The translations under genes were made by a program, and so were the position numbers. From the NCBI GenBank assembly GCA_958421325.1, contig CATZLO010000002.1, forward strand, positions 529-64,528: a stretch of 64,000 nt of DNA. The letters run 5' to 3'. The number at the start of each line of letters is the position of its first letter. The stretch's first letter is position 1. The DNA comes from an uncultured Bacilli bacterium (lineage in GTDB: Bacteria > Bacillota_I > Bacilli_A > RF39 > UBA660). Under the pieces are notes generated by a model, which saw nothing but the letters and a program-made list of their open reading frames with translations, was not told the DNA's origin and ran no database searches. Shown here in pieces: positions 5,033 through 52,794 of the stretch.

Positions 5033-5139
5033 AATTATAATCTATATTTAACTTATTTAAATTAACGTGCTGCTTTTTATAAAAACTCATGATATAATTG
5101 TAATGGTTATATTTTTAAATTGTAAAGGTGGTGTTCTTG

Positions 5140-6132
5140 ATGAGAAAATATAAAGTAGCAAGTTTATTTGCTGGAATAGGTGGTATAGATTATGGATTTA
5201 AGAAAGCAGGAGCACAACCAATATGGGCTAATGAAATTGATAAATATTGTGCTGTAACTTTTAAGGCTAATCATAAAAAAACTAAATTAGTTGTTGATGA
5301 TATATGTAATGTTAAAGGTATAGATATTCCTAAAATTGATATTTTAACTGCCGGTTTTCCATGTCAACCATTTTCTATAGCTGGCTATAGAAAAGGTTTT
5401 GAAGATGATCGTGGTAATATGTTTTATCAAATTATGCGTTTAGTTGATGAAATGGAAAATAATAGTAATAAACCTAGGATTATTTTTTTAGAAAATGTTA
5501 AAAATTTAGAAACACATGATAATAAAAAAACATATAGGACAATAAAAGAAGAGTTGAGAGATAGAGGATATTTTGTTACAAAAAAAGTTTTAAATACATG
5601 TGAGTATGGGAATGTGCCACAAAATAGAGAAAGAATTTTTATTATAGGTTTTTTAAATCAGCAAGATAGAGAGAAGTTTAAGTGGGAAAACATTCCTCCT
5701 ATTAAATTAACTAATACAATTGACAAGGTTGTTGATTGGAATGTAGCTGTTGATAAAAAATATTTATATGAAGATGATAAAAAGTGCTATAACTTATTAA
5801 AGGAGAATGTAACTGAAAAAAAAGTTATATATCAATATCGTCGAGTATATGTTAGAGCTAATAAATCAGGCTTGTGTCCAACTTTAACTGCTAATATGGG
5901 TATGGGAGGGCATAATGTTCCTTTGATTTTGGATAATAGAAATAGAATTAGAAAGCTATTACCTAGGGAGTGTTTATTGTTGCAAGGGTTTCCTAAAAAT
6001 ATGATTATTCCTCCTGAATTATGTGATTCTAGAGTTTATAAGCAAGCTGGTAATGCTGTATCTGTTCCAGTTGTAAAACGTGTGGCACAAGAAATTATTA
6101 GAGCAATGAGGGAGGTTGATAGTTTAGAATGA
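5140..6132 (+). CDS. DNA (cytosine-5)-methyltransferase
   Basis: m5C MTase motifs FAGIGG (I), GFPCQPFS (IV), ENV (VI), QNRERIF (VIII), GNAVSVPV (X). ATG 5140 follows AAAGGTGGTG. Confidence 0.9.
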   Translation: MRKYKVASLFAGIGGIDYGFKKAGAQPIWANEIDKYCAVTFKANHKKTKLVVDDICNVKGIDIPKIDILTAGFPCQPFSIAGYRKGFEDDRGNMFYQIMRLVDEMENNSNKPRIIFLENVKNLETHDNKKTYRTIKEELRDRGYFVTKKVLNTCEYGNVPQNRERIFIIGFLNQQDREKFKWENIPPIKLTNTIDKVVDWNVAVDKKYLYEDDKKCYNLLKENVTEKKVIYQYRRVYVRANKSGLCPTLTANMGMGGHNVPLILDNRNRIRKLLPRECLLLQGFPKNMIIPPELCDSRVYKQAGNAVSVPVVKRVAQEIIRAMREVDSLE

Positions 6133-7232
6133 AAATTATTAATTATGATAAAAAAACTTTTAAAAAGTATATGGAAGATTTACAGGTTGTAGGTATGTTG
6201 TCATATCTTTTTTCAGATAGTTCTACACCGATGTTATATTATAGGGCTACAGAAAATTTGTTTTGTAATGCTTTTAATGCAGAAAATTTGGCACGTTCTG
6301 ATGTTCCTGCTGATGCAAAATATGGAAATATTGGTGTTGGGATTAAAACATTTTTAGAAGGTAATAAGAAAACTTTCCAAAAAATTGAAGAATTTAATAA
6401 TCAACATTCTTTATATGAAAGTTTAAATCCTGAAGATAAAATAATTAAAATTGCTGAATTAAGAAATAATAGGTTAAAATTTACTATGGATACATACGGT
6501 ATTAAAAAAATGATATTTCATTGTATTGTTAGAAACAGCGAAGGTTTTCATTTTTTTGAAGAGCCAATGGATTTTATAGATATAGATAATATAAAAATTA
6601 AGAGTATAAATAAAAATACTATTGATTTTACTGATAATCAACATAATTATAAATTTAATATTACTAAAAGTACTTTATATAAACAGTTTTTAACTGATAG
6701 TTATTTTGCTGATATTAATGTTGTTATTGTTGGAGATCCTTTATCTTTGATTCAAAGGCCTGATGTCGATTCTTTAGTTACAATTACTGAAAATGAAATT
6801 TTAACTTTGCCTTTATATTCTTATTCGCATGGAAAAAAGATCGTTCCAGAGAAGAGTGGATTAAATCAATGGAATGCAGGTGGTAGGAAGAGAAATCTAA
6901 ATGAAGTATATATTCCTTTTCCTGCTAGTATAAGAAAAGAACATTTAGACTTTTTTCCTCCTAGAGATCAATGTTTTGATGTTAGATTGCCCAGTGGTAA
7001 AATACTTTCTATGAAAGTTTGTCAAGATAATGACAAAGCAATTATGTCTAATCCTAATAAATCTTTAGGTGAATGGATATTAAGAGAGGTTTTACATCTT
7101 GAGGAACTTGAATTACTTACTTATAATAAATTATTGGAATTGGGTATAGATAGTGTTATCTTTGAAAAGCATGGTGATTATTATTCTCTTGATTTTAATT
7201 CTTTAGAATTATCTAAAGAAGATGAAGTATAG
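6129..7232 (+). CDS. Putative type II restriction endonuclease, partner of the m5C methyltransferase
   Basis: ATGA 4-bp overlap with the MTase gene and same strand. Size (367 aa) and position are typical. Specificity family not recognised. Confidence 0.5.
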   Translation: MKIINYDKKTFKKYMEDLQVVGMLSYLFSDSSTPMLYYRATENLFCNAFNAENLARSDVPADAKYGNIGVGIKTFLEGNKKTFQKIEEFNNQHSLYESLNPEDKIIKIAELRNNRLKFTMDTYGIKKMIFHCIVRNSEGFHFFEEPMDFIDIDNIKIKSINKNTIDFTDNQHNYKFNITKSTLYKQFLTDSYFADINVVIVGDPLSLIQRPDVDSLVTITENEILTLPLYSYSHGKKIVPEKSGLNQWNAGGRKRNLNEVYIPFPASIRKEHLDFFPPRDQCFDVRLPSGKILSMKVCQDNDKAIMSNPNKSLGEWILREVLHLEELELLTYNKLLELGIDSVIFEKHGDYYSLDFNSLELSKEDEV

Positions 7233-7842: not shown

Positions 7843-9308
7843 TAGTGGGGATAGATAAAATTCTCGCTATTTTTATAAAATAAAAGAGACATATATAAGT
7901 CCTAAGATAAAATATAAATATTAACAATAAAAATATCGAAAGGATTTGATTATATATCTCAAGAAAATTATATAAGAAATTTATTAAATATTAAAGATAA
8001 AAATATAAAATTTTATAAAAACTTTTGTGAGGCTGGTATTAGTAAAGGTAAAAAATGTAAGTTTATTAATGCTTATTTATCTTATATTCCTACTCATTGC
8101 GAAAAGTGTGGTGTTATATTTGACTCTAAAGACGACTATGAGAAGAAAAGATTTTCTAATAGGTCCCCCTATGTTTTAATACCTAAAATATGTAAATTTA
8201 CTGCCTACCTTAAACTTGATAAACAACGTATTAAATGTCATCATTGTAACCAGTCTTTTACTTGTAAAACTGATTTAGTCGATTTTGGTTGTTTTATTTC
8301 TAACCCTACTAAACTTTCTATCGCTTCTGATTTAATAAAAAAAGAAGTGAAAAAGATATCGCCATTGATAATGATGTTTCTCCTAATACTGTTGAAAGAG
8401 TTATTGACTCTTATTATGATTCTAAAAAACTTTATAAGCATTATTTACCCGATGTTTTATGCTTTGATGAATTCAAATCTGTTAAATCTGCTGATGGTGT
8501 CATGAGTTTTAACATGTGTGATGGTACTAATGGCAAAACTATTGATATTGTTGAAGATAGAAAACCTTTTAGTCTTCTTAAATATTTTTCTTATTATTAC
8601 TCATAAGGCAAGAAGTAAGGTTAGGTTTATTGTTATTGATATGTATTCTCCTTATATTTCTCTTATTCTTAAGATGTTCCCTAATGCTTCTATTATTATT
8701 AATAAATTTCATTTGACTCAATTAATTTCCAAAGCTTTTAATAAAACTAGAATTATGGCTATGAAAAGGAATAAGAAAGACTATAGAAAACTTAAACGCT
8801 ATTGGAAATTGTTATTAAAATCTAGAGATGAACTTAAAGCCTCTGTATGGAAGAAATATACATGCTTTAATGATTTAACTACTGAAATTGATATTGTTAA
8901 TTATCTTATTAATTCTGATGATGAATTAAAAGATTCTTATCAAGCTTATCAAGATTTACCTTATGCTTTTCAACACAGTGATATTAAAGTATTAGAAGCT
9001 TCTTTAAATAATAATTATGAGCATCTTTCTTCATATATGACAACATCTATTAATACTCTAAAACGATTCCTACCTTATATTAAAAATACCTTTAATAATA
9101 ACTATCATAATGGTTATATTGAAGGAAATAACAACTTTATTAAAGTAATTAAAAAATTGCCTTTGGCTCTAGATCTTTTTCTCGATTTAAGGCTAGAATT
9201 ATGATTTGTAAAGGTCTAATTTTACCAAAAAGAAAAGAAGCATAATTCTATGCTTCAATTGATTATTTTGTCATTTGGATTTTCTTAAATCCCCACTATT
9301 TGACAAAG
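7843..9308 (+). mobile_element. Decayed ISL3-family insertion sequence
   Basis: Terminal inverted core TAGTGGGGAT (7843-7852) / ATCCCCACTA (9289-9298). The interior encodes an ISL3-type transposase in several frames. Confidence 0.7.
7930..9204 (+). pseudogene. ISL3 family transposase, multiple frameshifts
   Basis: Recognisable blocks: zinc-finger CEKCG..CHHCN, LCFDEFKSVKSADG.MSFNMCD, VIDMYSPYISLI..FPNA.III.KFHL.QLIS.AFNKTRI, KLKRYWKLLLK, GYIEGNNNFIKVIKK. The reading frame breaks near 8340, 8520 and 9150. Confidence 0.75.
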
Positions 9309-9439
9309 AAACTTTATATATTAAATTCGCACCAAATGCGAACAATTGTTCTGGCACGGAAACTGAACGAGTTTCCAAATTTTTAACGCCAAAGACTTTC
9401 TTTACAAAATCTATAACTATTTTACCATTTTTAATTGAT

Positions 9440-11149
9440 TTAAACAATAGTAATTATATTCTTCTGTGAACTTTCTTCATAATAACTATTAAAATTTCCA
9501 ACATCTAATAACCATAAACCAAAAACTTTTGATTTTTCAATGCAACTCTTAGGGTTAACTTTAATAATTTTAAACAACCACGGATTAACAAAATAGTCTT
9601 CTTCTTCTAAATAATCAACAACATCAAAGTCATACTTTTCTTGCAGTAATTCAATGTACTCTAAGGCATCTTTTTCATGTTTCATTTCTGCTATGCTTGC
9701 TTTATATACACCACTACCAACTATTTTATCTAACATATTACTATCTTCAAAATCTAATAGTTGTTTAACTTTATTTGATTTTAACTTCAAATCAGTTATT
9801 TCAATTTCGGTTATTTTGTTCCTTTTATTTTTAAGTTCCTTAATAACTACTGTATCAATGTAATTGTTAATAAACTCACATTTTGCCTCGTATGATGCCA
9901 TTTTCCATAACTCATTTAATTCTATGCTATCTAATAATTCCATTTTATCTTTAATGATTTTCTCATCAATAGCAAATCTTAATCTATGGTCTAATTTACA
10001 ATTATTAAATTTTTCTGCTGTTCTATTATCGGTTATATAATAATTATTTTTAATGATTGTACTAAGTTCTAATAAATTGTTTAATTCAGTAATTAAAGCA
10101 TTTTCTATAAGTTCTTCTCTAAGATAAATACCACAGTCCTTACACTTATAATAAAGATAATCATTTTTCATTTTATTTTTACAACCATTACAAGCAAGTA
10201 TTCGACCACAATGAGGACATACTAATCTTTGAATAAATAAGTAATTTTTAGACCGATAATAATTTCTACCATTTCTTGCTATCATTTCTTGGCAGTCATT
10301 ATATAATTCTTTACTTATTATTGCTGGAACAACTCCTATTATCTCCATAGTATCTTTATTTTTTACACTTTTACGATACTCATATACTCCCATATAAGAT
10401 TTATTATTTAATATCGTAGAAATAGAACTATCATTCCATTTTCTATAAATTATTTTTTCTTCGTTTGTTTCTTTATTTCTTCTAATACTTGATATTACTT
10501 TTGGATACTTTTCTTTTAATATCTTAGATATTTGAAAGTAAGTTTTACCACTAGCACATAACTCAAATATTTCTTTTACTATTTCCGCCTCATCTTTATC
10601 AATTTCCCATTCTTTTAATTTATGTTTACCACTATCATCTAATTTATGTTTATAGCCAAGTGGTGGCTTTCCTCCAATATGACCTTTATTAACTGCACTT
10701 TCAACACCTACTAATGTTCTTTCTTGTATCAGTTCTCTTTCAAACTGAGCAAATATTCCTAATATACGAGCAAACATCATACCTGCGGCACCAGTAGTAT
10801 CTATATTTTCACATAAGAACTCAATGCCACAATTATATTTTTTTAATTCTTTAAAAAATTCTTCAAAATCAATAATGCTACGACTTATTCTATCCATTTT
10901 AAAAGCCATTATCAAATTAAACTTACCTTTCTTCATATCCTTTAACATTTGCTGATAGGCAGGTCTGTTTTCAGCAGACTTGCCACTTATACCAGCATCA
11001 GTATATACTTTATATACTACATAATCATTAGACACACACCTTGCTTTTAATCTTTTTTCTTGCTCCTCTAAACTATGCCCTTCACGGGCTTGGTCTGTTG
11101 TGCTAACCCTAGTATAGATAGCAACTATTTTTTTATTTCCATTGTTCAT
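9440..11149 (-). CDS. Large serine recombinase (integrase of the left integrative element)
   Basis: N-terminal resolvase catalytic domain (VAIYTRVSTTDQ, MDRISRS), recombinase domain, zinc ribbon CPHCG..CKDCG, long coiled-coil C-terminus. 569 aa. Confidence 0.9.
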   Translation of the reverse strand: MNNGNKKIVAIYTRVSTTDQAREGHSLEEQEKRLKARCVSNDYVVYKVYTDAGISGKSAENRPAYQQMLKDMKKGKFNLIMAFKMDRISRSIIDFEEFFKELKKYNCGIEFLCENIDTTGAAGMMFARILGIFAQFERELIQERTLVGVESAVNKGHIGGKPPLGYKHKLDDSGKHKLKEWEIDKDEAEIVKEIFELCASGKTYFQISKILKEKYPKVISSIRRNKETNEEKIIYRKWNDSSISTILNNKSYMGVYEYRKSVKNKDTMEIIGVVPAIISKELYNDCQEMIARNGRNYYRSKNYLFIQRLVCPHCGRILACNGCKNKMKNDYLYYKCKDCGIYLREELIENALITELNNLLELSTIIKNNYYITDNRTAEKFNNCKLDHRLRFAIDEKIIKDKMELLDSIELNELWKMASYEAKCEFINNYIDTVVIKELKNKRNKITEIEITDLKLKSNKVKQLLDFEDSNMLDKIVGSGVYKASIAEMKHEKDALEYIELLQEKYDFDVVDYLEEEDYFVNPWLFKIIKVNPKSCIEKSKVFGLWLLDVGNFNSYYEESSQKNIITIV

Positions 11150-11834
11150 TTTTCTTTGCCTCTCTTTCTACTATATCGCTATATGTGTCAAATAGTTTTC
11201 GAGGTTTAACCTCTATTTTTGCTTTTTCTTGTTCACTCATTTTTATTCTCCCAAAACCTACAATTTCTTTCATAATTACAAAAACATCTCTACAAGTCCC
11301 CAAACAATTCCCATTATCGTCAAAAATAGGATTTTCTTCAAACCGAGATGTATCTTCTCCTAATAAATTTACCCAATTATATGGTGTTGTCGATTTAGGG
11401 TTTTTAACTTCAAATATGTTGAATTTAGGATAACATTTTGCTTTTCCCTTTTTTTCTTTTTTAATATTGTCATTTCTCTCTCTTTTAATTAGTGGTTTAA
11501 TGACTGGGGCATAAATATAAGAACTTTCTAATTGTAATTCATAATTATATTTATATAGTTCACCAATCAACTTATATAAATCTTCATCATTTTTTGCTAA
11601 TGTTTCCAAATTATACGAAAGTACAATATTAAATACTTTTGTTTTAATATCTTCAATCATTTTATTAAATTGTGGTTTTTTAACATTATCAGTATCAATA
11701 TATTCCTTAACTATATCTAAACCAAAATGCTTACAATATTTTTTTAAACGTTTTATTTGTTCATCTAAGGGTATTTCAACTTTAGAAGGTTTGCTACAAT
11801 ATATAGCAACCTCGTTTTTTACTAATATATTCAT
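11133..11834 (-). CDS. Resolvase-fold-like protein lacking catalytic residues, translationally coupled to the large serine recombinase
   Basis: N-terminus aligns by eye to the resolvase domain (VAIYCSKPS.. vs vaiYxRvSt; LETLAKNDEDL vs lDRlsR). The Arg/Ser/Asp-Arg positions are substituted. 17-nt overlap with the downstream LSR gene. Confidence 0.45.
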   Translation of the reverse strand: MNILVKNEVAIYCSKPSKVEIPLDEQIKRLKKYCKHFGLDIVKEYIDTDNVKKPQFNKMIEDIKTKVFNIVLSYNLETLAKNDEDLYKLIGELYKYNYELQLESSYIYAPVIKPLIKRERNDNIKKEKKGKAKCYPKFNIFEVKNPKSTTPYNWVNLLGEDTSRFEENPIFDDNGNCLGTCRDVFVIMKEIVGFGRIKMSEQEKAKIEVKPRKLFDTYSDIVEREAKKNEQWK

Positions 11835-11946
11835 TATTAGTCCTCCTTACATAATTTAATTTACTAGGAGGTTTTCTAAAACTATTCCAATTTAATTATA
11901 CTTATCATATAATATAAATAGGGAATTAGAAAACCCTACAACTTAT

Positions 11947-11986
11947 TATGAGGTTAGTACCTCGCTAAAGTTACTTTAACCTCATA
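11947..11986. other. Perfect 10-bp stem / 20-nt loop hairpin without flanking T-run (candidate recombination or replication site)
   Basis: TATGAGGTTA (11947-11956) pairs with TAACCTCATA (11977-11986). Not followed by a U-run on either strand. Confidence 0.4.
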
Positions 11987-12223
11987 TATCTTCAAGCATT
12001 ACTTTATGTAGTGCTTTTTATGTGCTGTCATTTATCACATTACCACCTACCTTTATTGAATAATAATTATAGTAGAATTTTACAAATAAACCAATCTACT
12101 ACTTACTAAGGGCAAAAATTTTTCCCTTGCACTTACATTATACTTAATTTGGTAGTATAATAATATATATCAATCGAACGCAATTTGTTAAATATTAGTT
12201 CGGTATATACGGGTGATAATATG

Positions 12224-13243
12224 AAATTGACTTATAGCGAAATATATGGAAAAGACACAAAAGGTAATGGCTATTGTTTACCTACATTAGAACTTTACTA
12301 TACTTATGAGGAAAGAAAACTGATACCTAAATCAAAATACTTAATAGAAGAAAAAGAAGAGGATAGTAATTTATATACTGCATATATACCTTTCTTTAGT
12401 ACATTTTTTGATGGGCTAAAGGAGGAAACCATATCAAAGTTAAAAAGTATATTTGATTTTACAAAAAAATATAACCGTAAAGATTACATTAGCAAAGAAA
12501 TATGGAAACCATTTTTATTTACATCTAATATTGCAATAGGAAACATCCAAAAAACTTACAATACCCACCTAGAAAAAGTAGAAAAACCTAATTCAAGACG
12601 ACCTCTATATAAAAAATATAACCGTAAAAGTGCTAATCAATTAGAAGTGGAAAAATATTATAAGAGTAGAGTCAGTAAATATAATCAAGAAATTGGTACT
12701 ATTCAGCGTAGCATATATAACGAACTAACAAATCATTTTTTAAATAACGTAAAACCTTCATTAAAACAAAATTATATAATTCAAAAAACAAGAGATAAAG
12801 ATTTACCTATATTAAGTATAATGAAACAAGGAGTATATGGTGGAATAATGAATATAGAATTTACTTTTGATTTTAGAAACGAATTAGAACTACTTTATTC
12901 CTTTTTGGAGTGTATTTTCCAATCTGATTATAACTATAAGATTAAAAGGTGTAATAATAAAGAATGCTTGAATTTTTACATAACATTAGATACCAAAACT
13001 AAACATTGCCCTTATTGTTTATCAACTATTAAAAAACTTCAAAAGCAGAAATATGAGAATAAAGATTTAGTTAAAATTGAAAGAAGGGTCTATCAGTTAG
13101 TTAATGCTCCTAATAGAAGAAATGAAAAAAAAGAATACTTAGGTACTAAACGAAAAAAAAAGAGAAAATTAGTAAATGGTATTATTACCGAAAAAGAATA
13201 TATTGATTGGCTTTTATCCTATTATAGAACTAAATATAACTAA
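12224..13243 (+). CDS. Hypothetical protein with C-terminal CxxC..CxxC zinc-ribbon-like motif and K/R-rich tail
   Basis: ATG 12224 inside track ORF 12185. Contains CNNKEC..HCPYC. No family recognised. Confidence 0.45.
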   Translation, partial: KLTYSEIYGKDTKGNGYCLPTLELYYTYEERKLIPKSKYLIEEKEEDSNLYTAYIPFFSTFFDGLKEETISKLKSIFDFTKKYNRKDYISKEIWKPFLFTSNIAIGNIQKTYNTHLEKVEKPNSRRPLYKKYNRKSANQLEVEKYYKSRVSKYNQEIGTIQRSIYNELTNHFLNNVKPSLKQNYIIQKTRDKDLPILSIMKQGVYGGIMNIEFTFDFRNELELLYSFLECIFQSDYNYKIKRCNNKECLNFYITLDTKTKHCPYCLSTIKKLQKQKYENKDLVKIERRVYQLVNAPNRRNEKKEYLGTKRKKKRKLVNGIITEKEYIDWLLSYYRTKYN

Positions 13244-13833
13244 TATTTTTTTACCATGTTATAAAAAGTATTAGGCTTTAACCCTAATAACTCCATTGCT
13301 TCTTTACTTTTAATCTCTTTATTTTTCCAACGACTAACCACAACATCAAAATCTTGTGGTTTTTCTATTTTTGGTCTACCAAACTTAACCCCATTATTTT
13401 TAGCATTAGTAATACCTTCTTTTTGCCTTTGTTTTATAAAAGTTCTTTCTTGCTCAGCAACATAACTTAATATTTGTAATACTAAATCACTAATAAAAGT
13501 TCCAAGCAAATCTTTATTCTTCCTAGTATCTAATAAAGGCATATCAATAACGACTATATCTGCCTTAATATTTTTAGTAATATCTTTCCACTCATCAATT
13601 ATTTGGTTATAATTTCTACCAAGTCTATCAATAGACTTAATAACCAACAAATCATTTTCCCTTAATATATGTTTTAATGTAATGTAATTTTCTCTATTAA
13701 AATCTTTACCACTTTGTTTATCGATATAAATATCTCTTTCATCAATACCATATTCTTTAAATGCTACTAATTGTCTTTCTTCGTTTTGCTCTTTGCTACT
13801 AACTCTAGCGTAGCCAAATATTTTACTTTTCAT
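13240..13833 (-). CDS. Small serine recombinase (resolvase/invertase family)
   Basis: IFGYARVSSKEQ catalytic serine block, IDRLGRN, C-terminal HTH. 197 aa. Confidence 0.85.
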   Translation of the reverse strand: MKSKIFGYARVSSKEQNEERQLVAFKEYGIDERDIYIDKQSGKDFNRENYITLKHILRENDLLVIKSIDRLGRNYNQIIDEWKDITKNIKADIVVIDMPLLDTRKNKDLLGTFISDLVLQILSYVAEQERTFIKQRQKEGITNAKNNGVKFGRPKIEKPQDFDVVVSRWKNKEIKSKEAMELLGLKPNTFYNMVKKY

Positions 13834-13839
13834 ATAAAC

Positions 13840-14070
13840 CTACCTCGCCAAATAATCGTTTGCTTCTTTTAAAACATTATCAATTATAGAATCGTTAACT
13901 AACTCATTATAATTAACCTTAATACATTTTCTTTGAAGCTCATCTATAAAATGTACTAATGCAATAGTATAAGGAAAGTAATGCTCATTTTCTTCTATGC
14001 CAGTTACTAAGGCATCTACATAACCATCACATATCCAGTCAACCAATTTTATTAAAATTGACTTATTCAC
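13840..14070 (-). CDS. Hypothetical small protein
   Basis: GTG 14070 lies 7 nt after AAGGAGGTG. The track ORF starts at 14091 inside the SD. Confidence 0.35.
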   Translation of the reverse strand: MNKSILIKLVDWICDGYVDALVTGIEENEHYFPYTIALVHFIDELQRKCIKVNYNELVNDSIIDNVLKEANDYLAR

Positions 14071-14195
14071 TTTATGACACCTCCTTACCATAAAATATAT
14101 AATATATGACTTTCAAAAAAGATACGAGCCGTTTTCTTTAAAAAAGTAGAAAAACTTTCCAAATATTTAAAAAGAATAGAAAAGACTTTTAACAA

Positions 14196-14233
14196 TACAA
14201 AAAAGACTTAAATTCTATTAAAATCTAAGTCTT
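14196..14233 (-). terminator. Rho-independent terminator after the HEPN gene
   Basis: AAGACTTA (14203-14210) / TAAGTCTT (14226-14233). On the minus strand it is followed by TTTTTTG. Confidence 0.6.
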
Positions 14234-14257
14234 TATAAACCTACACATTTTTAAATA

Positions 14258-15532
14258 TTATTTTAGATGTGTTATTAAATAATTCTCATCTACATTTATT
14301 CCTGCTAATGAATAAACCTCTAAATAAGCAACTGCCTTTATGAAATTTTTAACATCATACAACCATTGAATATCAATTTTTTTATATCTAATGGGATTAA
14401 AAGTTGGAATAGGTAATTCTTCTATATAATAACCATTATGTGAATAATAGTTTCTTAATGATCTAATTTCTTCTTCAATAATATTATTTTGTTGATTTTC
14501 AAAATATGTATCCTTAATCTTAGGGTATTTTTTTAATAATCCTATTAAAAAGTTAGTATTTTTTCCTTTATTCAACTTCTTTCTCATTTCAGTATCAGTA
14601 TATTCTAATACTCTATAATACTCTAAAAATTGTATTTCGGTTGAGGTAACCTTTCTATCAAAATTTAAAAAAGGAAAAAAACTATTACTGTTTTCATTTG
14701 TTATATTTAAAAATAAGTTAAACAATTTATCAAAATTAGTAATATTATTTTCTCTTTTGTCTAAATAAAAATTAGGTTGTTTTTCTTCCTTATCATTATT
14801 TTTAATATTATGGAATTCATAACTATTTTTTTTAGTATCATATATAGTCAATTCTTTACTCCTACCACTTGTAAGTAAAAATAGATGAATTACACTATCA
14901 ATTCTATTACTAATTTTTAAAACCGTATCTAAATCAACACTTTTTTGAAAAGCAATCTCTAAATATGCAGCTGGTTTGATATTAAGATTATATATGCTTC
15001 CACTATGACTATAACTGTTAATAAGTTTAATAATTATTTTATTATCTTTGTAAAAAGTACGAGAAATAATTTTTTCTTTTTGTTTTTTTGCTTCTATATT
15101 CATTTCATTTTCTTTCCTTTTAATAGTCATAGAAGCACTAGGGAATATATATTTAATATTATCATTATAATACACTATCTTTTTTATTTTAGTCTTATCT
15201 GTAAAGTGAGTAATAGGTGATAAAGCTTTATTTCCTACAATATACATTTGAGATGATATTATTGAATGAGGAATAGCATTAAAACTACTACTATTTATAC
15301 TACATCTATATAATGTTAGGGGATGATATGTACTATTTATCCCATAAAATATTTTTGTTTCTATCAACTTACCAAATTCGCTGTTATAAAAACCAAAAGT
15401 ACTAAATTTATCTATATCTTTTACTTTCAGTTCCAATCTATCTTCTTTTTTATTAACAATAACTAATTTTTGTTCTTCTTCATTTATTTCTTTAAAAGGA
15501 ACTAAATCTAAATAACCAAATTCATTATTCAT
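14258..15532 (-). CDS. ApeA-like HEPN-domain protein (candidate single-gene defence nuclease)
   Basis: C-terminal Rx4H motif (SLRNYYSHNGYY) preceded by FLEYYRVLEY helix. About 300-aa N-terminal domain. Architecture as recalled for ApeA. ATG 15532 follows GGTGG. Confidence 0.45.
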   Translation of the reverse strand: MNNEFGYLDLVPFKEINEEEQKLVIVNKKEDRLELKVKDIDKFSTFGFYNSEFGKLIETKIFYGINSTYHPLTLYRCSINSSSFNAIPHSIISSQMYIVGNKALSPITHFTDKTKIKKIVYYNDNIKYIFPSASMTIKRKENEMNIEAKKQKEKIISRTFYKDNKIIIKLINSYSHSGSIYNLNIKPAAYLEIAFQKSVDLDTVLKISNRIDSVIHLFLLTSGRSKELTIYDTKKNSYEFHNIKNNDKEEKQPNFYLDKRENNITNFDKLFNLFLNITNENSNSFFPFLNFDRKVTSTEIQFLEYYRVLEYTDTEMRKKLNKGKNTNFLIGLLKKYPKIKDTYFENQQNNIIEEEIRSLRNYYSHNGYYIEELPIPTFNPIRYKKIDIQWLYDVKNFIKAVAYLEVYSLAGINVDENYLITHLK

Positions 15533-15595
15533 AAATACCACCAAAAAATATTATACAATATTTTTATTATGTATCATAGGAATTTACGGTTTATT

Positions 15596-15685
15596 CCTCG
15601 CAAATTTCAATAAAAAAAGATAACTCAATATAATTTATACTAAATTACCTAAACGACCTTAAACTTACTAATATGCTGTTTTTTT
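15596..15685. repeat. Cassette-junction repeat copy R1 (AT-rich hairpin, T-run, TTGAAA)
   Basis: About 80 percent identical by eye to 16709-16800. Shared blocks TTTCAATAAAAAA, TAATATAATTTATACTAAA, CCTTAAACTTACTA. Confidence 0.6.
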
Positions 15686-15725
15686 ACTAACTATTCAATT
15701 TTTAAAACATATATTTTAAAACACA

Positions 15726-16670
15726 TTATTTTATAGCATTATAATAGTCATTGCATAATTGCAATAAATAGTCTTTTTTTACTATACTATCTAACCATTT
15801 GCTAGGTAAATTACCATAATATATTCCACTTAAACCGCCAACCAATGCTCCAATAGTATCACTATCATTTCCTAAATTGATGGCTTCAATGACACATTTA
15901 TCATAACTATTATTATTTATAAAACACCATATCACTGCCTCTAATGTATCAACAACAAAGCCCATACTACTAATACTATCTACATCTAATTTACTAATAT
16001 CGTTATTTAATAATTGGTCATAATATTTTATATTTTCCAAACTAAAATACTTTCTATAATTATATTTTCTTACATTACTATAAGCATTTTCTTTTTCCTT
16101 GCCACTTAATAACTCTATAACTAACAACACATATATAAAACAACCTAATATACTTATTTCATGGCTATGCGTAAGTGATGATATATCTTTTACTAAATTA
16201 TATATTTCATCATCATTTAATTTTTTATAATAACAATAGTAAACAATAGGTAATATTCGCATTAAACTACCATTACCATTATAATTAAAACCTTTCATAC
16301 CACATTCAGTTATCTTTTCATATCTTTTATTATGATAATTTCCTAAAGCAAAAAATGTTGCTCTGCCAATGCCGAATGCTTTATCTATGGCAATAAAATC
16401 TTTATTTGAAACCCATAAAATAAAATTATCCATAATACTTTCATAATTTATCTTGCCTTTATTATCTATAATTGATTTCATTGTAGCAATAACCATACTA
16501 CTATCATCAGACCAAACACCTTTTACACCAACTCTATCACTACTAATCATATCAATAACTTTATTATTTTTAAATAACTCTCTTTTTTTAAATTCTAATG
16601 GAACACCTAAGGCATCACCAATAATAAAACCTAATATTCCATTTTTCAATTTATTAAAATCACACATCAT
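15726..16670 (-). CDS. ADP-ribosylglycohydrolase family protein (DraG/ARH-like)
   Basis: Motifs GFIIGDALGVPLEF, WSDDSSM, GNGSLMRILP, LGNDSDTIGALVGGLSGIYYG. Confidence 0.85.
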   Translation of the reverse strand: MMCDFNKLKNGILGFIIGDALGVPLEFKKRELFKNNKVIDMISSDRVGVKGVWSDDSSMVIATMKSIIDNKGKINYESIMDNFILWVSNKDFIAIDKAFGIGRATFFALGNYHNKRYEKITECGMKGFNYNGNGSLMRILPIVYYCYYKKLNDDEIYNLVKDISSLTHSHEISILGCFIYVLLVIELLSGKEKENAYSNVRKYNYRKYFSLENIKYYDQLLNNDISKLDVDSISSMGFVVDTLEAVIWCFINNNSYDKCVIEAINLGNDSDTIGALVGGLSGIYYGNLPSKWLDSIVKKDYLLQLCNDYYNAIK

Positions 16671-16708
16671 TACCACCTAATTATATTATATATTAAATAC
16701 TTACTTAT

Positions 16709-16800
16709 TTCGCCTTTATTTCAATAAAAAAGAGTAACCTAATATAATTTATACTAAACTATATTAAATTACCTTAAACTTACTATAAATGCTAATTTTT
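16709..16800. repeat. Cassette-junction repeat copy R2
   Basis: Homologous to 15596-15685. Contains imperfect hairpin GTAACCTAATATA..TATATTAAATTAC, then a T-run and TTGAAA on the minus strand. Confidence 0.6.
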
Positions 16801-17626
16801 ACTTTATATACTCAACACCATCAATAATCAATGAGATAACATTTTTATTACTATCATATTTTATTTGGAACTCACTTCTTAACTTAGCACCAAAACTATT
16901 TTCACTATCTACATAGGCTTGCACTGTAACAATTCCATTATCTTTGCCAAACTTCCAATTATTTATATTAGGGAACTTTGCTGTACTTGGGGCCTTTAAT
17001 AATGACTTAATTCTTTCTTGGGCATCAATATTATACTCATTTTTCTCATCCCAACTGATTAAATAATCATTAAAATTCAACAATACCTTGCCATCTCTAT
17101 AAAAATCTTTATCTGCCCATCTTATACATATAATTTTATTATCACTACTAACATATAAAATTATATTATTATTTTGACTAAAACTGGCTTTAACTCTATA
17201 ACCTTTAGACCCAGCACCCTCATATTCATCTAATGCTTCATCTGCCTCTATACTATCAATTTCATCAATGCCAATGCTTTTAAAAATATTCTCCATTGCT
17301 ATTGCTTCTTCATTATTAACATTTAAACTACTTTTAATTTCTTTTACCATTTTTGAACTATTATCTACTGGCTCAACTTTTCCACCTGTCGCTATCATTG
17401 CAATTGCTACTACTAAAAATATTAAACCAACTGCACCACCAAATATAATAGCAAATATTTTACCAACACTTTTTTCTTTTGGCTTATCAACTTTTGGCTC
17501 CTTAATATTGCTTTCTTTCTTTACATATTTTTCTTTTTTACCCTTATTCTTAATAGCCTTAACTATAAAATAAATAGGCAATACTATAACCGCAACCCCT
17601 AACAACAAATAAAATAAATCTTCCAT
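16799..17626 (-). CDS. Hypothetical two-TM membrane protein with extracytoplasmic C-terminal domain
   Basis: Two hydrophobic helices separated by a K-rich linker. No family recognised. Confidence 0.45.
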   Translation of the reverse strand: MEDLFYLLLGVAVIVLPIYFIVKAIKNKGKKEKYVKKESNIKEPKVDKPKEKSVGKIFAIIFGGAVGLIFLVVAIAMIATGGKVEPVDNSSKMVKEIKSSLNVNNEEAIAMENIFKSIGIDEIDSIEADEALDEYEGAGSKGYRVKASFSQNNNIILYVSSDNKIICIRWADKDFYRDGKVLLNFNDYLISWDEKNEYNIDAQERIKSLLKAPSTAKFPNINNWKFGKDNGIVTVQAYVDSENSFGAKLRSEFQIKYDSNKNVISLIIDGVEYIK

Positions 17627-17757
17627 ATCTACACCTCACTATACATAATTATATATTATTTTAGCAAAATATACAATATCAATTATATAAATATAACTAA
17701 TATTGCTATCACTGATTTTTAATAATTCTAAAATTATATATAAAGGAGGGTAATCGC

Positions 17758-18090
17758 GTGGAGAATAATTTAAAACAAATTCGTAATAATAAAAATCTGT
17801 TGCAAACAAAAGTTGCTATGGATTTAAACATTACCCAAGAAGCTATATCTTCTTATGAAACTGGTAGGGTTTTCCCAAGTTCTGATATGTTAATTAAACT
17901 TGCTAACTACTACAATACATCTATTGACTACTTATTATGTCGAACTAAATATGATATGCCTATTGATGATGTTAAACCAAATAATATTTCCGATACTGAC
18001 TTTATCTTACTTAACAAAATCAACAAATTATCTACTACTAATAAAGCTAAAGTAGAGGGCTATATAGATGGTTTAAATGATAGTAAATAA
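17758..18090 (+). CDS. XRE-family helix-turn-helix transcriptional regulator
   Basis: LKQIRNNKNLLQTKVAMDLNITQEAISSYETGRVFPSSDMLIKLANYYNTSIDYLL. GTG start after AAAGGAGGG. Confidence 0.8.
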   Translation: MENNLKQIRNNKNLLQTKVAMDLNITQEAISSYETGRVFPSSDMLIKLANYYNTSIDYLLCRTKYDMPIDDVKPNNISDTDFILLNKINKLSTTNKAKVEGYIDGLNDSK

Positions 18091-18351
18091 TTATGCCACA
18101 GCCACATCTTCTGGCTTTGGCTTTTTTACTCCAATAAATTCTATTATTTCTATGTCTTTATATTTTTTAAGTAACTCCACATACTCTTTAACACTATTAC
18201 AATAAACAAATTTAACTTCTTCCTTATAAATTAAATCTAACCTTATAGGACTATCTTCTTTTATCCATACATAAATTTTTAAAATACCATTATTACCAAT
18301 GACTTTTTTTATTTTATCTAATTTATTTTCAATACTACTTAAACTAACCAT
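18091..18351 (-). CDS. Hypothetical small protein
   Basis: ATG 18351 overlaps the upstream gene's end by 8 nt. No motif recognised. Confidence 0.35.
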   Translation of the reverse strand: MVSLSSIENKLDKIKKVIGNNGILKIYVWIKEDSPIRLDLIYKEEVKFVYCNSVKEYVELLKKYKDIEIIEFIGVKKPKPEDVAVA

Positions 18352-18736
18352 TACTAGCACCAACCTTTTCATTTAATAATTCTTCTATCTCTTTCATCTT
18401 ATCCATAATATTTCTTTGTTCATTAAACTTTAATATCATATCTAAAATGCTTTTAGAAGCATTTAATCTAACATTACTACTAACATTTTCATCATCTAAC
18501 ATACTATTTAAGACTGTTATTGCCTTATTTCCAAGTAAATTTATCTTATCAATACAATTATCTACTATAATACTTTTTCTCTCGTTTAAAACTACTTTAA
18601 ACTCGGTATTAGCAAGCCATCTATTTAAAGTGGCTTCGCTAACACCTACATTCTTAGCACTTTCCACTATGCTATTGCCTTTTAATAATTCATTTATTGC
18701 TAATTCTTGTCTTACATTTAACTTACCCATAATCAT
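18344..18736 (-). CDS. HTH DNA-binding protein (phBC6A51-type / terminase-small-subunit-like HTH)
   Basis: LNVRQELAINELLKGNSIVESAKNVGVSEATLNRWLANTEF resembles the N-terminal HTH of small terminase-like phage proteins. Confidence 0.4.
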   Translation of the reverse strand: MIMGKLNVRQELAINELLKGNSIVESAKNVGVSEATLNRWLANTEFKVVLNERKSIIVDNCIDKINLLGNKAITVLNSMLDDENVSSNVRLNASKSILDMILKFNEQRNIMDKMKEIEELLNEKVGASNG

Positions 18737-18867
18737 TGCTCCTTTTATTATTTTTAGTAAAAATACTATTATTTCCTATTAAAAACTATTATTTTTACTG
18801 TCTTTTCTTTAATATTATATGTTTTTTTAATTATCTAATAGTTCTTATTATAATAGGGTAATCTAAT

Positions 18868-19593
18868 CTACTTAAAACCTTTATATTTATTATTATAAAA
18901 GCATTTTCTACTTACTGGTTTTGCCAATAAATTCAATTTTCGAGCAATATCAAAATAAGTAACTGTAAAACCTTTACTTTCAATAAACTGGGTTAAAATA
19001 CTTTGCTTCTCTATATATTTTATTATATGTTCATAATCTTCCTTTCTATTTTTGGTTTTTCTTCTATTCACATTCAAATTAGTTAAACTACATCTAGGAA
19101 CTCGCTGATTTTTATTCTTTCTCTTTGCTAATATTCCACTCATAAGGACATCTAAATTCTTGTTATACCCTTTATAGTAATGTTTATAAAAATTAGGGGT
19201 ATCGTAAACACTTTTATCAAATTCTTCTTTTGCTAATTTTTTATTTAATACTTTCTGCAAATATTCCTCAATATCTCTAACCATAGTACCTAATGGGGCA
19301 CCACAAACCATAACGTGTAAATGCCAATTAACATATTTAATTCCTTTTGTTATATTCTTAGGCATAAATTCAGTTCTAGGTCTGCCGACACCATTTGTCT
19401 TATATTTATAATCAACACTATCGCCATCAACATTAGATAAACCCACAAAGATACTGTAATCATAATCACTGCTTTTATATTTATATTTAATAAACTTAAT
19501 TAAATTATAATAGACTGCCTTCGCTTCATCTTCACTAAACAAATAATATATTGGGGTACTTAATAATGTAACACCAAATCTTCTATTACTCAT
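18868..19593 (-). CDS. Putative HUH-type rolling-circle Rep/relaxase-like protein
   Basis: Candidate motif 1 FGVTLLST, motif 2 NWHLHVMV (HUH), motif 3 YEHIIKYIEKQ (Tyr). Family not confirmed. Confidence 0.4.
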   Translation of the reverse strand: MSNRRFGVTLLSTPIYYLFSEDEAKAVYYNLIKFIKYKYKSSDYDYSIFVGLSNVDGDSVDYKYKTNGVGRPRTEFMPKNITKGIKYVNWHLHVMVCGAPLGTMVRDIEEYLQKVLNKKLAKEEFDKSVYDTPNFYKHYYKGYNKNLDVLMSGILAKRKNKNQRVPRCSLTNLNVNRRKTKNRKEDYEHIIKYIEKQSILTQFIESKGFTVTYFDIARKLNLLAKPVSRKCFYNNKYKGFK

Positions 19594-19883
19594 TAGACTG
19601 CCTCTTTCATAGTATCTAATATTAAATTTAGTTTTTTCATATCTATCGGCATTTTTCTATTATATAAAAACATATTATCTTCATCAAAGTACAGTACCAA
19701 TATCTTTTTACCATTTAATTTTATTAAAAATCTATGTGGCTCAATAAAACTTACATTAGTTCTATCTACATTTAGTATTCTTCCTTGCGTAAATTCATAT
19801 TTAGCACTATGAAAATCACAAGCTATTTTAATTTTCCTCTCAAACTTTTCATTTCTTCTTAAATCTACATAATCTTTTATCAT
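19593..19883 (-). CDS. Hypothetical small protein
   Basis: ATG 19883 follows GGAGGTG. ATGA-type overlap with the Rep-like gene. Confidence 0.4.
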   Translation of the reverse strand: MIKDYVDLRRNEKFERKIKIACDFHSAKYEFTQGRILNVDRTNVSFIEPHRFLIKLNGKKILVLYFDEDNMFLYNRKMPIDMKKLNLILDTMKEAV

Positions 19884-19907
19884 TTTCACCTCCAATTTTA
19901 TGGCAAA

Positions 19908-19941
19908 CTAAAACACGGACAAACTCTACGTTTTCCGTGCT
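19908..19941 (-). terminator. Terminator downstream of tRNA-Trp
   Basis: CACGGA (19915-19920) / TCCGTG (19935-19940). On the minus strand it is followed by TTTTAGTTT. Confidence 0.55.
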
Positions 19942-19983
19942 TTTATATATGTTTACTCCATATTTTTGGAGATTATCCACATC

Positions 19984-20057
19984 TGGCAGGGACATCAGGA
20001 TTTGAACCCGAATAGATGGTTTTGGAGACCACTATGTTACCATTACATCATGTCCCT
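19984..20057 (-). tRNA. trnW: tRNA-Trp (anticodon CCA), 3' CCA encoded
   Basis: Minus strand reads AGGGACA..GGTCTCCAAAACC..GGTTCAAATCC..TGTCCCTGCCA. 7-bp acceptor stem, anticodon loop CTCCAAA, T-loop GGTTCAAATCC. Confidence 0.9.
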
Positions 20058-20340: not shown

Positions 20341-20346
20341 TTTAAT

Positions 20347-20587
20347 GAAGAGGTGGACATACATTAGGATCCGGGGCATAGAAACAATGATTTTTAAATC
20401 TTCCTGCTAGGGTTTGATCATACCATGTACTAATACAGTTGTTATTTCTTCCAGGGGCATAGAACCATAAAGCATTAGTAGCAGGGTAGTAATATTCTCC
20501 TTTTAAGTTTCTTTCTGCTAGTTCTCTTTCTTTGATAGTAGAGCCTGATGTAAATTGTGGGCTGTTGATACCAGCGAAACCTCCAGG
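20347..20587 (-). pseudogene. cwlJ: cwlJ (SleB/CwlJ Hydrolase_2 family cortex-lytic enzyme), C-terminal fragment
   Basis: Minus strand reads (PGGF)AGINSPQFTSGSTIKERELAERNLKGEYYYPATNALWFYAPGRNNNCISTWYDQTLAGRFKNHCFYAPDPNVCPPLH*. It continues the N-terminal fragment at 53589-53782. Confidence 0.8.
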
Positions 20588-20606
20588 TTTTTGTTAGTTA
20601 GTACTA
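20580..20606. other. attL of the prophage (core CCTCCAGG plus phage arm TTTTTG-TTAGTTAGTACTA)
   Basis: Core at 20580-20587 is identical to 53589-53596. The 13-bp arm 20594-20606 is the exact inverted copy of 53570-53582. Confidence 0.75.
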
Positions 20607-21956
20607 TATAAAATTAACAGTTATGTTTTTGTTTTTGTCTATTGTTATATTATCAATAATACTTCGCCAAAGTCTTTGTTTTTCTACATCTGTTAAAGTG
20701 TCATAAATGGTTAAGAAATCCATTTTTAGAAACTTTTGTAGATTATCTATATTAATATTTTGCTCTTCTTGGTTCGCTTGTTCTTCTTTCTTTAACTCTT
20801 CTTTTAAATAGTTGTAGTCATTATTATACTTATCTTTGTCTATTAAATCATTAAGATATAGATCCACAAGTTTATTCATTTTATTTTTTATTTCTGTTGC
20901 TTTATTTTTTCTTGTTATCTTTTTCTTTTTATTTGCATTTAAGATATTATTTTCTGCTATTTTTAAAATATTTTCTTTTAAATAGTCCTCAATATACATT
21001 TCTGTTAATGCTGTTGTATTGATACAATTCCTTTCTACGTAGTGTTGTTTACATCTGTATATTTTTGTATAACCTGTTTTGGCACCTCTTGTTCCTCCTG
21101 CCATTTTAAAACCGCATTCTTCACATATTATTAAACCACTAAATATATAATCTCTCTTTGTGTTAGAGTTATATATTTTTATGTTTCTTTTTAATTCTTT
21201 TTGCACTCTGTAAAATTTATCTTCATCAATAATAGCAGGGCAGAAGTCTTCTATTAGTTCTTTGTTTTTAGTCGTTGTAAATTTTCCTATATATTTAGTA
21301 TCAGTAAGATAGTTTCTAATACTTCCTATACTCTTATTTCCTATATTATTTTTAAACCATTGATGAGTTTTTACTAAGCTTGATGTTTTTAAGTAGTAGT
21401 CATATAATTCATTTAATTGCTCTGCTTCTTTTTCATTAATTATAAGATGCTTATTTTTATCTATATCATAACCAAATATTTTAGCTCCTGTACAAACTGT
21501 CTTTGCAACTTTATATTTGTAGTTATTTACTCTATTAATACGTTCAGAGTCCTTATTTCTTTCGTGTTCTGCAAGGTTTACTTTAAGGTTGAATATAAAT
21601 CTACCATCAGCAGTAGAAGTGTCTATATCGTCCTCATCTATAGCTTTAAATGAAGTGTTATGTTTATCTAATTCTACTAGTAGGTTATTAGCATCTCTTA
21701 CATTTCTTGAAAACCTATCTAATTTTGTAAAAATGATTAAATCTATATTATCAAGGTCTTTAAGCAGTCTTACAAATTCTTTTCTTTTTGATATTGTTCC
21801 TGCTGATACACCTTCATCTATGTAATAGTCATATATTTTATATTTATTTCTTTTACAATATTGTGTTAAACTGTTCTTTTGATCGTCAACTGATATTCCA
21901 AACCTCTTTTGTTCTTCAGTTGATACCCGACAATATATTGCTACATTTTTAATCAT
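20604..21956 (-). CDS. Large serine recombinase (prophage integrase)
   Basis: VAIYCRVSTEEQ, LDRFSRN, recombinase domain, zinc ribbon CEECG..CKQH..C, coiled-coil C-terminus. The stop codon lies inside the att arm. Confidence 0.9.
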   Translation of the reverse strand: MIKNVAIYCRVSTEEQKRFGISVDDQKNSLTQYCKRNKYKIYDYYIDEGVSAGTISKRKEFVRLLKDLDNIDLIIFTKLDRFSRNVRDANNLLVELDKHNTSFKAIDEDDIDTSTADGRFIFNLKVNLAEHERNKDSERINRVNNYKYKVAKTVCTGAKIFGYDIDKNKHLIINEKEAEQLNELYDYYLKTSSLVKTHQWFKNNIGNKSIGSIRNYLTDTKYIGKFTTTKNKELIEDFCPAIIDEDKFYRVQKELKRNIKIYNSNTKRDYIFSGLIICEECGFKMAGGTRGAKTGYTKIYRCKQHYVERNCINTTALTEMYIEDYLKENILKIAENNILNANKKKKITRKNKATEIKNKMNKLVDLYLNDLIDKDKYNNDYNYLKEELKKEEQANQEEQNINIDNLQKFLKMDFLTIYDTLTDVEKQRLWRSIIDNITIDKNKNITVNFI

Positions 21957-52341: not shown

Positions 52342-52794
52342 TTATTTATAATTACTGATTAGTTCTTCGTAATCTTTATAAGTAATATATCCATCTGCTA
52401 CTTGCTCATCTTTATCATCAAATACTGATATGTAAGCATAAGTATGGTCATCTAATACTGTAGTATTAAAGCTACCATCTTCTAACTCATAATATTTTTC
52501 TAATAATGTATCTTGAGTAGAGTAGTGACCTGCAGAGAAGTCTTCTCTAAAATTTTCTTTCTCTTCTACTTCATTTCTTTTTAAAAAGTTAATTACATCA
52601 AATTTATTCATCATAATCTTTATTCCTTTCTTAAATTCATAAATACTTTGTTTTAGAAAGTCTGTTTTTGTTATATTTTCTCTTTCTAAAAGTTTATCTA
52701 AGCTTTCTTTTTCTTCAATTTTTAACTTTGCTTTAAATTGACTATAATGTTCTTTTTCATAATTATTGTCATATTCTCTTTTATTAAAAGCCAT
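52342..52794 (-). CDS. Hypothetical protein (basic N-terminal helix region, acidic C-terminal half)
   Basis: Second gene of the minus-strand operon at the prophage right end. Confidence 0.4.
   Translation of the reverse strand: MAFNKREYDNNYEKEHYSQFKAKLKIEEKESLDKLLERENITKTDFLKQSIYEFKKGIKIMMNKFDVINFLKRNEVEEKENFREDFSAGHYSTQDTLLEKYYELEDGSFNTTVLDDHTYAYISVFDDKDEQVADGYITYKDYEELISNYK

Follow-up and report, generated by a model that had tools for sequence, protein, structure and literature searches.

The sequence analyzed here, referred to as the window, is a 64,000-nucleotide, AT-rich stretch (∼26% GC) of contig CATZLO010000002.1 from an uncultured gut bacterium of the Bacilli, and all coordinates are those of the window unless a locus is named. 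Its minus strand carries the two overlapping genes that are the subject of this analysis. The first encodes a large serine recombinase (LSR) of 569 amino acids (9440-11149), assigned as the integrase of a genomic island from its Pfam domains and from orthologs at the same position. Directly upstream lies the gene (11133-11834) of a 233-residue protein, here termed the partner, which is predicted to be non-catalytic and to consist of a dead resolvase-fold domain fused to a C-terminal module. The partner gene was assigned from its open reading frame (ORF), from an AGGAGG ribosome-binding site 7-8 nt ahead of the ATG, from homologs and from its ratio of non-synonymous to synonymous substitution rates (dN/dS). 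Inspection of the sequence placed the 3' end of the partner ORF 17 nt into the start of the LSR ORF, and both ORFs were as described in an earlier sequence-only reading of this DNA.

The LSR was matched by the Pfam Resolvase (126 bits) and Recombinase (64.7 bits) models and weakly by a zinc-ribbon model (E 0.028). Its active site is intact (YTRVST and MDRISRS), and its orthologs in related loci are 61-88% identical. Among these orthologs the junction between partner and LSR is an overlap of 17, 11 or 8 nt, a shared start and stop, or a gap of 18-78 nt. A programmed frameshift fusing the partner to the LSR was considered and is unlikely, since the length of the junction varies in this way. A scan for a promoter within the partner gene that would serve the integrase only returned 37 sites against 36 expected by chance, which is uninformative and neither demonstrates nor excludes such a promoter.

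Domains, catalytic residues and conservation of the partner

Residues 1-105 of the partner (11520-11834, minus strand) were assigned to a degenerate serine-recombinase catalytic domain from Pfam, Foldseek and alignments. The Pfam Resolvase family (PF00239) matched residues 22-103 with 35.8 bits (cut-off 23.3), covering profile positions 15-99 of 145. An AlphaFold2 model of the 233-residue protein, built with 17 homologs, had a predicted local distance difference test score (pLDDT) of 79.9 and a predicted template modelling score (pTM) of 0.71, with residues 1-105 forming a beta-alpha-beta domain. The best Foldseek match to this model in the Protein Data Bank (PDB) was the catalytic domain of TP901-1 integrase (3bvp; E 9e-7, root-mean-square deviation 2.4 Å, 101 columns, 29% identity), followed by the catalytic domains of IS607 TnpA, Sin, phiC31 and Bxb1. 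A hidden Markov model (HMM) search of the PDB with the partner returned 3bvp with E 1e-11. The sequence-only reading had recognized a resolvase pattern in the first ∼100 residues; since both Pfam and Foldseek matched catalytic domains, the fold, as modelled, is real and not a chance pattern. The top NCBIfam match to this domain was the CcrB model, at 38.5 bits against a 900-bit cut-off and over residues 8-100 only, and Pox_F16 (PF04708) matched with E 0.0047 and 16.9 bits, below its 30-bit gathering threshold. LSR catalytic domains (TP901-1 integrase, the CcrB model) are nearer in sequence to the dead domains than small resolvases are.

The partner was aligned (MAFFT) with three active recombinases, namely the LSR of the pair and a 197-residue small resolvase and a second, 450-residue LSR of the same window. 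In the partner YxRVS is replaced by YCSKPS and D-R..R by E-T..K; in the partner family Y-x-R-V-S reads YCS(K)(P/L/H/F) and D-R-x-x-R reads (E/D/N)-T-x-x-(K/H/M/L). All 17 homologs have Ser at the Arg8 position and Thr (Thr78) at the Arg68 position. The Arg71 position is mostly Lys (Lys81), with His, Met or Leu in distant members, and the D67 position is Glu, Asp or Asn. A10, I11, Y12 and S14 are invariant in the family. MAFFT placed Pro16 (Pro, Leu, Val or Ser in homologs) at the position of the nucleophilic serine, while the HMMER alignment to 3bvp placed the invariant Ser14 there by deleting the preceding 'RV'. The placement of the gap around the nucleophile is ambiguous because the partner has four residues fewer than the LSR in the loop that joins strand 1 to helix A. 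As aligned, the replacement of catalytic residues claimed earlier stands for Arg8 and Arg68, which are lost in either alignment, whereas loss of the nucleophilic serine depends on the alignment chosen.

Helix E is missing from the partner: the Pfam match reaches only as far as profile position 99 of 145, and in the model beta-4 is not followed by a helix. No helix-turn-helix, Recombinase or zinc-ribbon domain was found in the partner with Pfam or NCBIfam. As judged from its sequence the partner cannot recombine DNA alone and is not an autonomous recombinase. With neither a Recombinase nor a zinc-ribbon domain, and with Arg8 and Arg68 lost, the two genes do not form an active pair of the CcrA/CcrB type, the possibility that the sequence-only reading had set against its own. 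An unorthodox active enzyme, with Ser14 as the nucleophile of a remodelled active site, was judged very improbable. The HMM alignment to 3bvp and the invariance of A10, I11, Y12 and S14 would fit such an enzyme, but a deletion or replacement has removed the equivalent of Arg8, an invariant Thr stands at the position of Arg68, that of Arg71 holds Lys or varies, and both helix E and a DNA-binding domain are lacking. Single substitutions of the catalytic arginines abolish catalysis in studied serine recombinases, which also counts against it.

The catalytic-fold domain is followed by a Lys-rich linker of low confidence (residues 106-133, 11436-11519, minus strand; pLDDT 54-64) whose length differs among homologs. 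A beta-rich C-terminal module (C-module; residues 134-200, 11235-11435, minus strand) comes next and carries the motifs PxNW, FE..PIFD..GNYLG and GF; its pLDDT is ∼88 in the full-length model. The basic tail (residues 201-233, 11133-11234, minus strand) contains the 17 nt that overlap the LSR start. In the models the C-terminal half is a three- to four-stranded beta sheet followed by the basic tail, which has a conserved P(R/K)KLF(E/D)T motif and a terminal helix; in the tail K213 is invariant and L214 nearly so. No match to the C-terminal half was found in Pfam, PHROG, PDB or BFVD (best Foldseek E 0.65 in the PDB and 0.1 in BFVD), and as the model of the C-module alone was moderate (pLDDT 73, pTM 0.38) the fold search could miss a weak similarity.

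In sister elements the C-module is a free-standing protein of 108-121 residues with the same motifs and 30-36% identity, encoded directly upstream of the LSR. An exhaustive profile search (1.84 billion representatives) returned only proteins of at most 136 residues and the fused form of ∼220-250 residues. The C-module was fused to nothing else, and both forms together made up fewer than 20 clusters at 50% identity. By sequence comparison the C-terminal half is a separable, conserved module of narrow distribution that is specific to these elements. It had earlier been called unrelated, which is correct in that Pfam, PHROG, PDB and BFVD hold no match, but not as a dismissal, as this half is conserved, under selection and free-standing in sister elements.

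Full-length homologs of the partner numbered 33 (48-95% identity) in a search of 5.8 billion proteins; their reading frames are intact, and both halves hold invariant residues. Against five or six orthologs dN/dS was 0.18-0.40 for the whole protein (dS up to ∼1.3), 0.15-0.34 for the N-domain and 0.15-0.36 for the C-terminal domain, compared with 0.12-0.22 for the LSR and 0.04-0.16 for the small resolvase. By these ratios the partner is a functional protein under purifying selection, somewhat less constrained than its neighbours, and the earlier notion of a pseudo-recombinase was upheld. A decaying duplicate, i.e. a functionless pseudogene fragment of an integrase, is effectively refuted. A truncated and mutated copy of a catalytic domain beside an intact one is what such decay would leave, but the frame is open in at least 33 homologs down to 48% identity, the low dN/dS holds at dS values up to ∼1.3, both modules contain invariant residues, and the gene has a good ribosome-binding site and the protein a confident model. 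Searching phage and plasmid collections with the partner (tblastn) gave matches only to the N-domains of genuine integrases and no member of the family.

Distribution of the pairing upstream of related integrases

Ten loci were first found through the partner (L001-L010; metagenome-assembled genomes of uncultured Bacilli, Erysipelotrichaceae and Candidatus Faecisoma), and in all ten the partner lies directly before an LSR ortholog of 61-86% identity. To counter sampling bias, metagenomes were also scanned with the LSR as the seed, and loci were retained if their LSR was at least 54% identical and had 900 nt or more of sequence upstream. Fifteen loci qualified; they represent about nine distinct lineages, several loci being near-duplicates. 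A serine-less catalytic-domain ORF is immediately adjacent to the LSR in 12 of the 15, only the free C-module (∼115 aa) lies upstream in two (L015 and L016), and neither module was present in one (L025). A 466-aa ORF lies directly upstream of the partner-less LSR of L025 (L025:4477-5877) and by eye is P-loop helicase-like (PIF1/RecD-like).

The modules are arranged differently between loci. In the window a fused N-domain and C-module precede the LSR. In L027, L036 and L154-L158 the C-module, a protein of ∼135 aa with the N-domain only and the LSR follow one another with all junctions abutting. The fused form occurs together with an N-domain-only protein in L004, L022 and L163-L165, and other short dead N-domains were found in L026, L031 and L055. 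Among 77 distant LSR loci (at most 42% identity, mostly IMG/VR prophages) neither a small N-domain ORF nor the C-module was adjacent in any; the IMG/VR scan with LSR alignment yielded nothing above 42% identity and was used as a negative control only. A second LSR of the window (20604-21956) served as an internal control and has no dead-paralog partner. Because the pairing recurs in the clade and is absent from the 77 distant loci and from the second LSR of the window, it is, by gene content, a clade-specific and repeatedly remodelled architecture, and neither a one-off nor a generic feature of LSRs. The sequence-only reading had raised the question of whether such a paralog is a regular upstream neighbour of LSR genes in this clade, and by the survey it is.

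The ∼135-aa N-domain-only proteins form a separate family that consists of the catalytic domain alone. They read YCRV(A/G/D), so that the nucleophile is absent, but Arg8, Arg68 and Arg71 are kept, as are the first ∼20 residues of helix E. The family is abundant (202 matches at E ≤ 1e-15, on contigs of up to 1.2 Mb); examples are L154:7339-7746, L036:5995-6402, L004:8698-9135, L166:4001-4447 and P0202-P0260. In every context examined the gene abuts an LSR, including LSRs that are 44% and 41% identical to that of the window. The 41%-identical LSR with such a neighbour has 638 aa, has no small resolvase nearby and belongs to a different element that adjoins scpA/scpB. Members are labelled 'recombinase family protein' by NCBI.

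Serine recombinases form their dimers and tetramers through an interface that consists mainly of helix E. The sequence-only reading had proposed a heterodimer through the catalytic-domain interface; as the fused partner has no helix E, by its Pfam match and its model alike, such a heterodimer is unlikely for it. The N-domain-only family retains part of the helix, and there such a heterodimer is more plausible. The same features bear on a brake, in which the dead-fold protein would form inactive mixed complexes with the integrase or cap its catalytic domain and so stabilize the current state of the island. A serine recombinase tetramer requires four active subunits, which makes a serine-less paralog a natural poison subunit; the N-domain-only proteins keep the three arginines and the ∼20 residues of helix E that entry into an integrase oligomer would need, and co-translation at a fixed ratio would fit a buffer or brake. 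The fused protein of the window, however, is poorly equipped as a replacement subunit without helix E and has no DNA-binding domain that would deliver it to attachment (att) sites. A constitutive inhibitor made together with its target also seems wasteful, and the conserved C-module would be left unexplained. A dominant-negative role of this kind was considered unlikely.

The tRNA-Trp island and its neighbourhood

Comparison of junctions placed the pair in an island of ∼10.6 kb (9352-19988, minus strand) with the core TGCCA. The element-side arm of the right junction is the 28-mer TTTGGAAACTCGTTCAGTTTCCGTGCCA (9352-9379, minus strand), and homology among copies stops exactly after ...GTGCCA. 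This 28-mer lies ∼60-100 nt beyond the LSR stop, is conserved, and is unique in the window, with 0 occurrences expected by chance. The left junction is the 3' end of a tRNA-Trp gene (19984-20057, minus strand; ARAGORN and sequence), and the island sequence starts directly after the tRNA end ...CCCTGCCA. In four other genomes (L154-L157) with different tRNA-Trp bodies and flanks the island starts after ...CCCCTGCCA and ends ...CCGTGCCA; the island of L154 is ∼8.5 kb. As the junctions are reproduced in four genomes with different flanks, the integration site of the island is the tRNA-Trp 3' end and the core is TGCCA.

The reconstructed attP (minus strand) is ...AAAAATTTGGAAACTCGTTCAGTTTCCGTGCCA + GATGTGGATAATCTCCAAAAATATGGAG, with TTTGG/CCAAA inverted ends ∼47 bp apart, a typical size for an LSR attP. 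The reconstructed attB is the tRNA-Trp 3' end ...GGGTTCAAATCCTGATGTCCCTGCCA + GAACAATTGTTCGCATTTGGTGCGAA. Native attL and attR lie at 19960-20010 and 9330-9400. A partial copy of the att arm at 14149-14170 was rejected, as it resembles the -35 region of a promoter and shows no conservation as an att-like site. A tRNA-Trp-like gene in L014 was also rejected as a junction because it sits in variable cargo. In L160-L162, whose LSR is 44% identical, a sister element ends GTTGGAAACGGGCTTTATATTCGGACCA ∼170 nt after the LSR stop and is followed by unrelated flanks. The design of this end (GGAAAC motif, ...CCA end) mirrors that of the window island and suggests another tRNA 3'-end target.

The constant recombination block of these islands comprises an 83-aa ORF, the small resolvase, sometimes an antisense Cys-rich ORF, the partner(s) and the LSR. 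The 197-aa small serine resolvase/invertase (13240-13833, minus strand; Pfam 90.7 bits) has an intact active site, and copies of 59-99% identity are present in most related loci. The 83-aa ORF (13840-14091, minus strand) lies directly upstream of it and is conserved in L004, L015, L016, L022, L027 and L036 among others. In most loci both occur with the LSR, and both exceed it in conservation. The antisense ORF (12185-13243, plus strand) encodes 352 aa with Cys-rich motifs and occurs in some copies only (78% identity in L004 and L006, 52-53% in L016 and L022), where it has 283-357 aa and sits between the partner and the small resolvase. No family match to the 83-aa ORF or the antisense ORF was found in Pfam or PHROG. 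Inverted repeats through which the small resolvase could invert the antisense ORF were sought, and the repeat search gave AT-rich noise only.

With these neighbours the partner could instead serve a target other than the LSR, as an accessory of the small resolvase or in DNA binding, replication or defence, its adjacency to the LSR being inherited with the module. The small resolvase and the 83-aa ORF are neighbours in most loci and more conserved than the partner, and the basic linker and tail could bind nucleic acid. In L166-L168, however, no small resolvase lies within 4 kb of the LSR that a dead N-domain ORF abuts. It is always the LSR that partner genes adjoin and not the small resolvase, from which the antisense gene often separates them, and the dead domains are nearer in sequence to LSR catalytic domains, as noted above. 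A non-LSR target was considered highly unlikely.

The cargo of the island in the window includes an ApeA-like protein, an ADP-ribosylglycohydrolase and a terS-like protein; Macro, reverse transcriptase and DUF4268 cargo was found in other copies. By this content it looks like a small defence-cargo island. The terS-like protein is a 130-aa ORF (18344-18736, minus strand) that matches phage small terminase subunit families (phrog_2538, E 3.5e-8), and the island directly adjoins a complete prophage. These two features suggest a phage-satellite lifestyle.

The second LSR (20604-21956, minus strand; 450 aa) is unrelated, has Resolvase, Recombinase and Zn_ribbon_recom domains, and borders the prophage (∼22-52.3 kb), which carries DnaB, TerL, a portal protein and an amidase. 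Between tRNA-Trp and this LSR lies an orphan C-terminal half of a Hydrolase_2 (SleB/CwlJ-type) gene (20342-20569, minus strand), which was probably split by the prophage. The other half was not located, and an ORF at 52342-52794 had no Pfam match. Just beyond the right junction of the island are fragmented transposase ORFs of the ISL3 family (8518-9204, plus strand, and upstream to ∼8000); L004 has an ISL3 copy at the corresponding place. Two overlapping genes at 5128-7232 (plus strand) form a type II restriction-modification pair, with the C5 cytosine methylase ahead of the NgoFVII-like endonuclease.

Candidate roles of the pair and comparison with known systems

The gene arrangement and conservation make the partner a likely cofactor of the LSR, whether positive or negative in sign. 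A dedicated non-catalytic cofactor of the adjacent integrase, possibly resembling a recombination directionality factor (RDF), was given somewhat less than an even chance, and a specific stimulation of excision was held to be possible but doubtful. In the proposed mechanism the overlapping genes would lead to co-production of partner and integrase at a fixed ratio, and the partner would bind the integrase. The C-module would most likely dock on the integrase, as known RDFs do at the second DNA-binding domain (DBD2) and the coiled coil, and possible contacts of the dead catalytic-fold module are the catalytic domain of the integrase or its helix E. Both modules would then decide between the assembly of attL x attR complexes for excision and of attP x attB complexes for integration, giving an RDF-like or regulatory-subunit role. 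From its sequence distribution the C-module is no weaker a candidate than the dead domain for the part that binds the LSR, because it is found as a free-standing protein of ∼112 aa directly upstream of related LSRs.

One or both modules lie immediately upstream of the LSR, abutting or overlapping it, in almost every member of the clade. An RDF-like role is favoured because the position of the gene mirrors that of lambda xis and int, because the island must excise and has few other candidate genes, and because known LSR RDFs are likewise small, element-encoded and mutually unrelated in structure. The partner, too, is a small accessory protein encoded within the element of its integrase (9352-19988).

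Several observations weigh against the proposed cofactor. Translational coupling is awkward for a pure RDF, since RDFs block integration in characterized systems (e.g. GirX) and the integrase is probably never made without the partner. The C-module resembles no known RDF or fold in Pfam, PHROG, PDB or BFVD, although similarity to RDF families is a weak criterion, as the known RDFs are themselves unrelated to each other. L025 is a member of the clade and has no partner, which is therefore not universally required. Per-domain LSR identity showed no co-variation with the type of partner, the catalytic core and helix E being 74-100% identical.

The near-universal, translationally coupled pairing would also fit an obligate subunit of a recombinase holoenzyme that is needed in both directions, by the logic of CcrA with CcrB, with direction set elsewhere, e.g. 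by a helper phage or the small resolvase. LSRs of the staphylococcal cassette chromosome (SCC) type are two-protein systems with no RDF (PMC12286644), and the island is satellite-like in its terS-like gene, helper phages being able to supply satellite excision factors (PLE papers). Characterized large serine integrases, however, integrate without any cofactor, and in this integrase the set of domains is complete and the active site intact. There is no partner in L025 and no dead domain in L015 and L016. An obligate subunit was considered decidedly unlikely.

Returning to an RDF-like cofactor, an LSR with an accessory factor is a known kind of system. The known LSR RDFs (SPbeta SprB, phiC31 gp3, Bxb1 gp47, gin GirX and skinCd CD1234) are structurally unrelated to each other and act at DBD2 and the coiled coil of the integrase. 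Among known RDFs none is a paralog of a recombinase catalytic domain, and the C-module matches none. GirX blocks integration and is expressed under developmental control, whereas the partner gene is translationally coupled to its integrase.

The lambda xis gene lies immediately upstream of int and overlaps it, as the partner gene does with the LSR gene (17 nt). Lambda Int is a tyrosine recombinase and Xis a DNA-bending winged-helix protein; the integrase of the window is a serine recombinase, and the scan for an int-only promoter remained at chance level. In the staphylococcal CcrA/CcrB system two serine-recombinase-family genes also lie side by side and presumably act together, but CcrA and CcrB are full-length with DNA-binding domains, which the 233-residue partner lacks along with Arg8 and Arg68. 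Poxvirus F16, the one inactivated serine-recombinase family described, has likewise kept the serine-recombinase catalytic fold and lost catalysis, and the partner matches it weakly, but at 16.9 against 30 bits falls outside the family. F16 acts in a eukaryotic virus and is not known to be paired with an active recombinase. In the synaptosomes of Tn3, gamma-delta and Sin resolvases (PMC9943657) recombinase-fold subunits are also architectural and non-catalytic and control catalytic firing; there, however, the subunits are the same active protein bound at accessory sites, while the partner is a separate, disabled gene product with no DNA-binding domain.

On family assignments the partner lies outside the known RDF families, CcrAB-type pairs and Pox_F16. 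A full-text literature search, thin on subscription journals, returned no description of a catalytically dead recombinase paralog as the partner of an LSR, and from the gene content of the clade the pairing looks like an undescribed kind of integrase cofactor. A broader proposal was held to be somewhat unlikely, namely that permanently disabled copies of the catalytic domain, whether alone, fused to the beta module or alongside it, would form a new class of integrase regulator acting through the integrase catalytic domain or helix E on excisive versus integrative synapsis. Such a control point would differ from the DBD2/coiled-coil hinge used by all characterized RDFs.

Large serine integrases are important tools for genome engineering, and control of direction is their weak point: each integrase needs its own cofactor, and cofactors are hard to find as they have no common fold. 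If the proposed role is correct, a disabled paralog next to an LSR would be an easily searchable signature for integrase-cofactor pairs. The reconstructed att sites make the system directly testable in E. coli reporters. The pair would also possibly reveal a new regulatory interface on the catalytic domain and would be a clean natural case of a pseudo-enzyme regulating its active paralog in DNA recombination.

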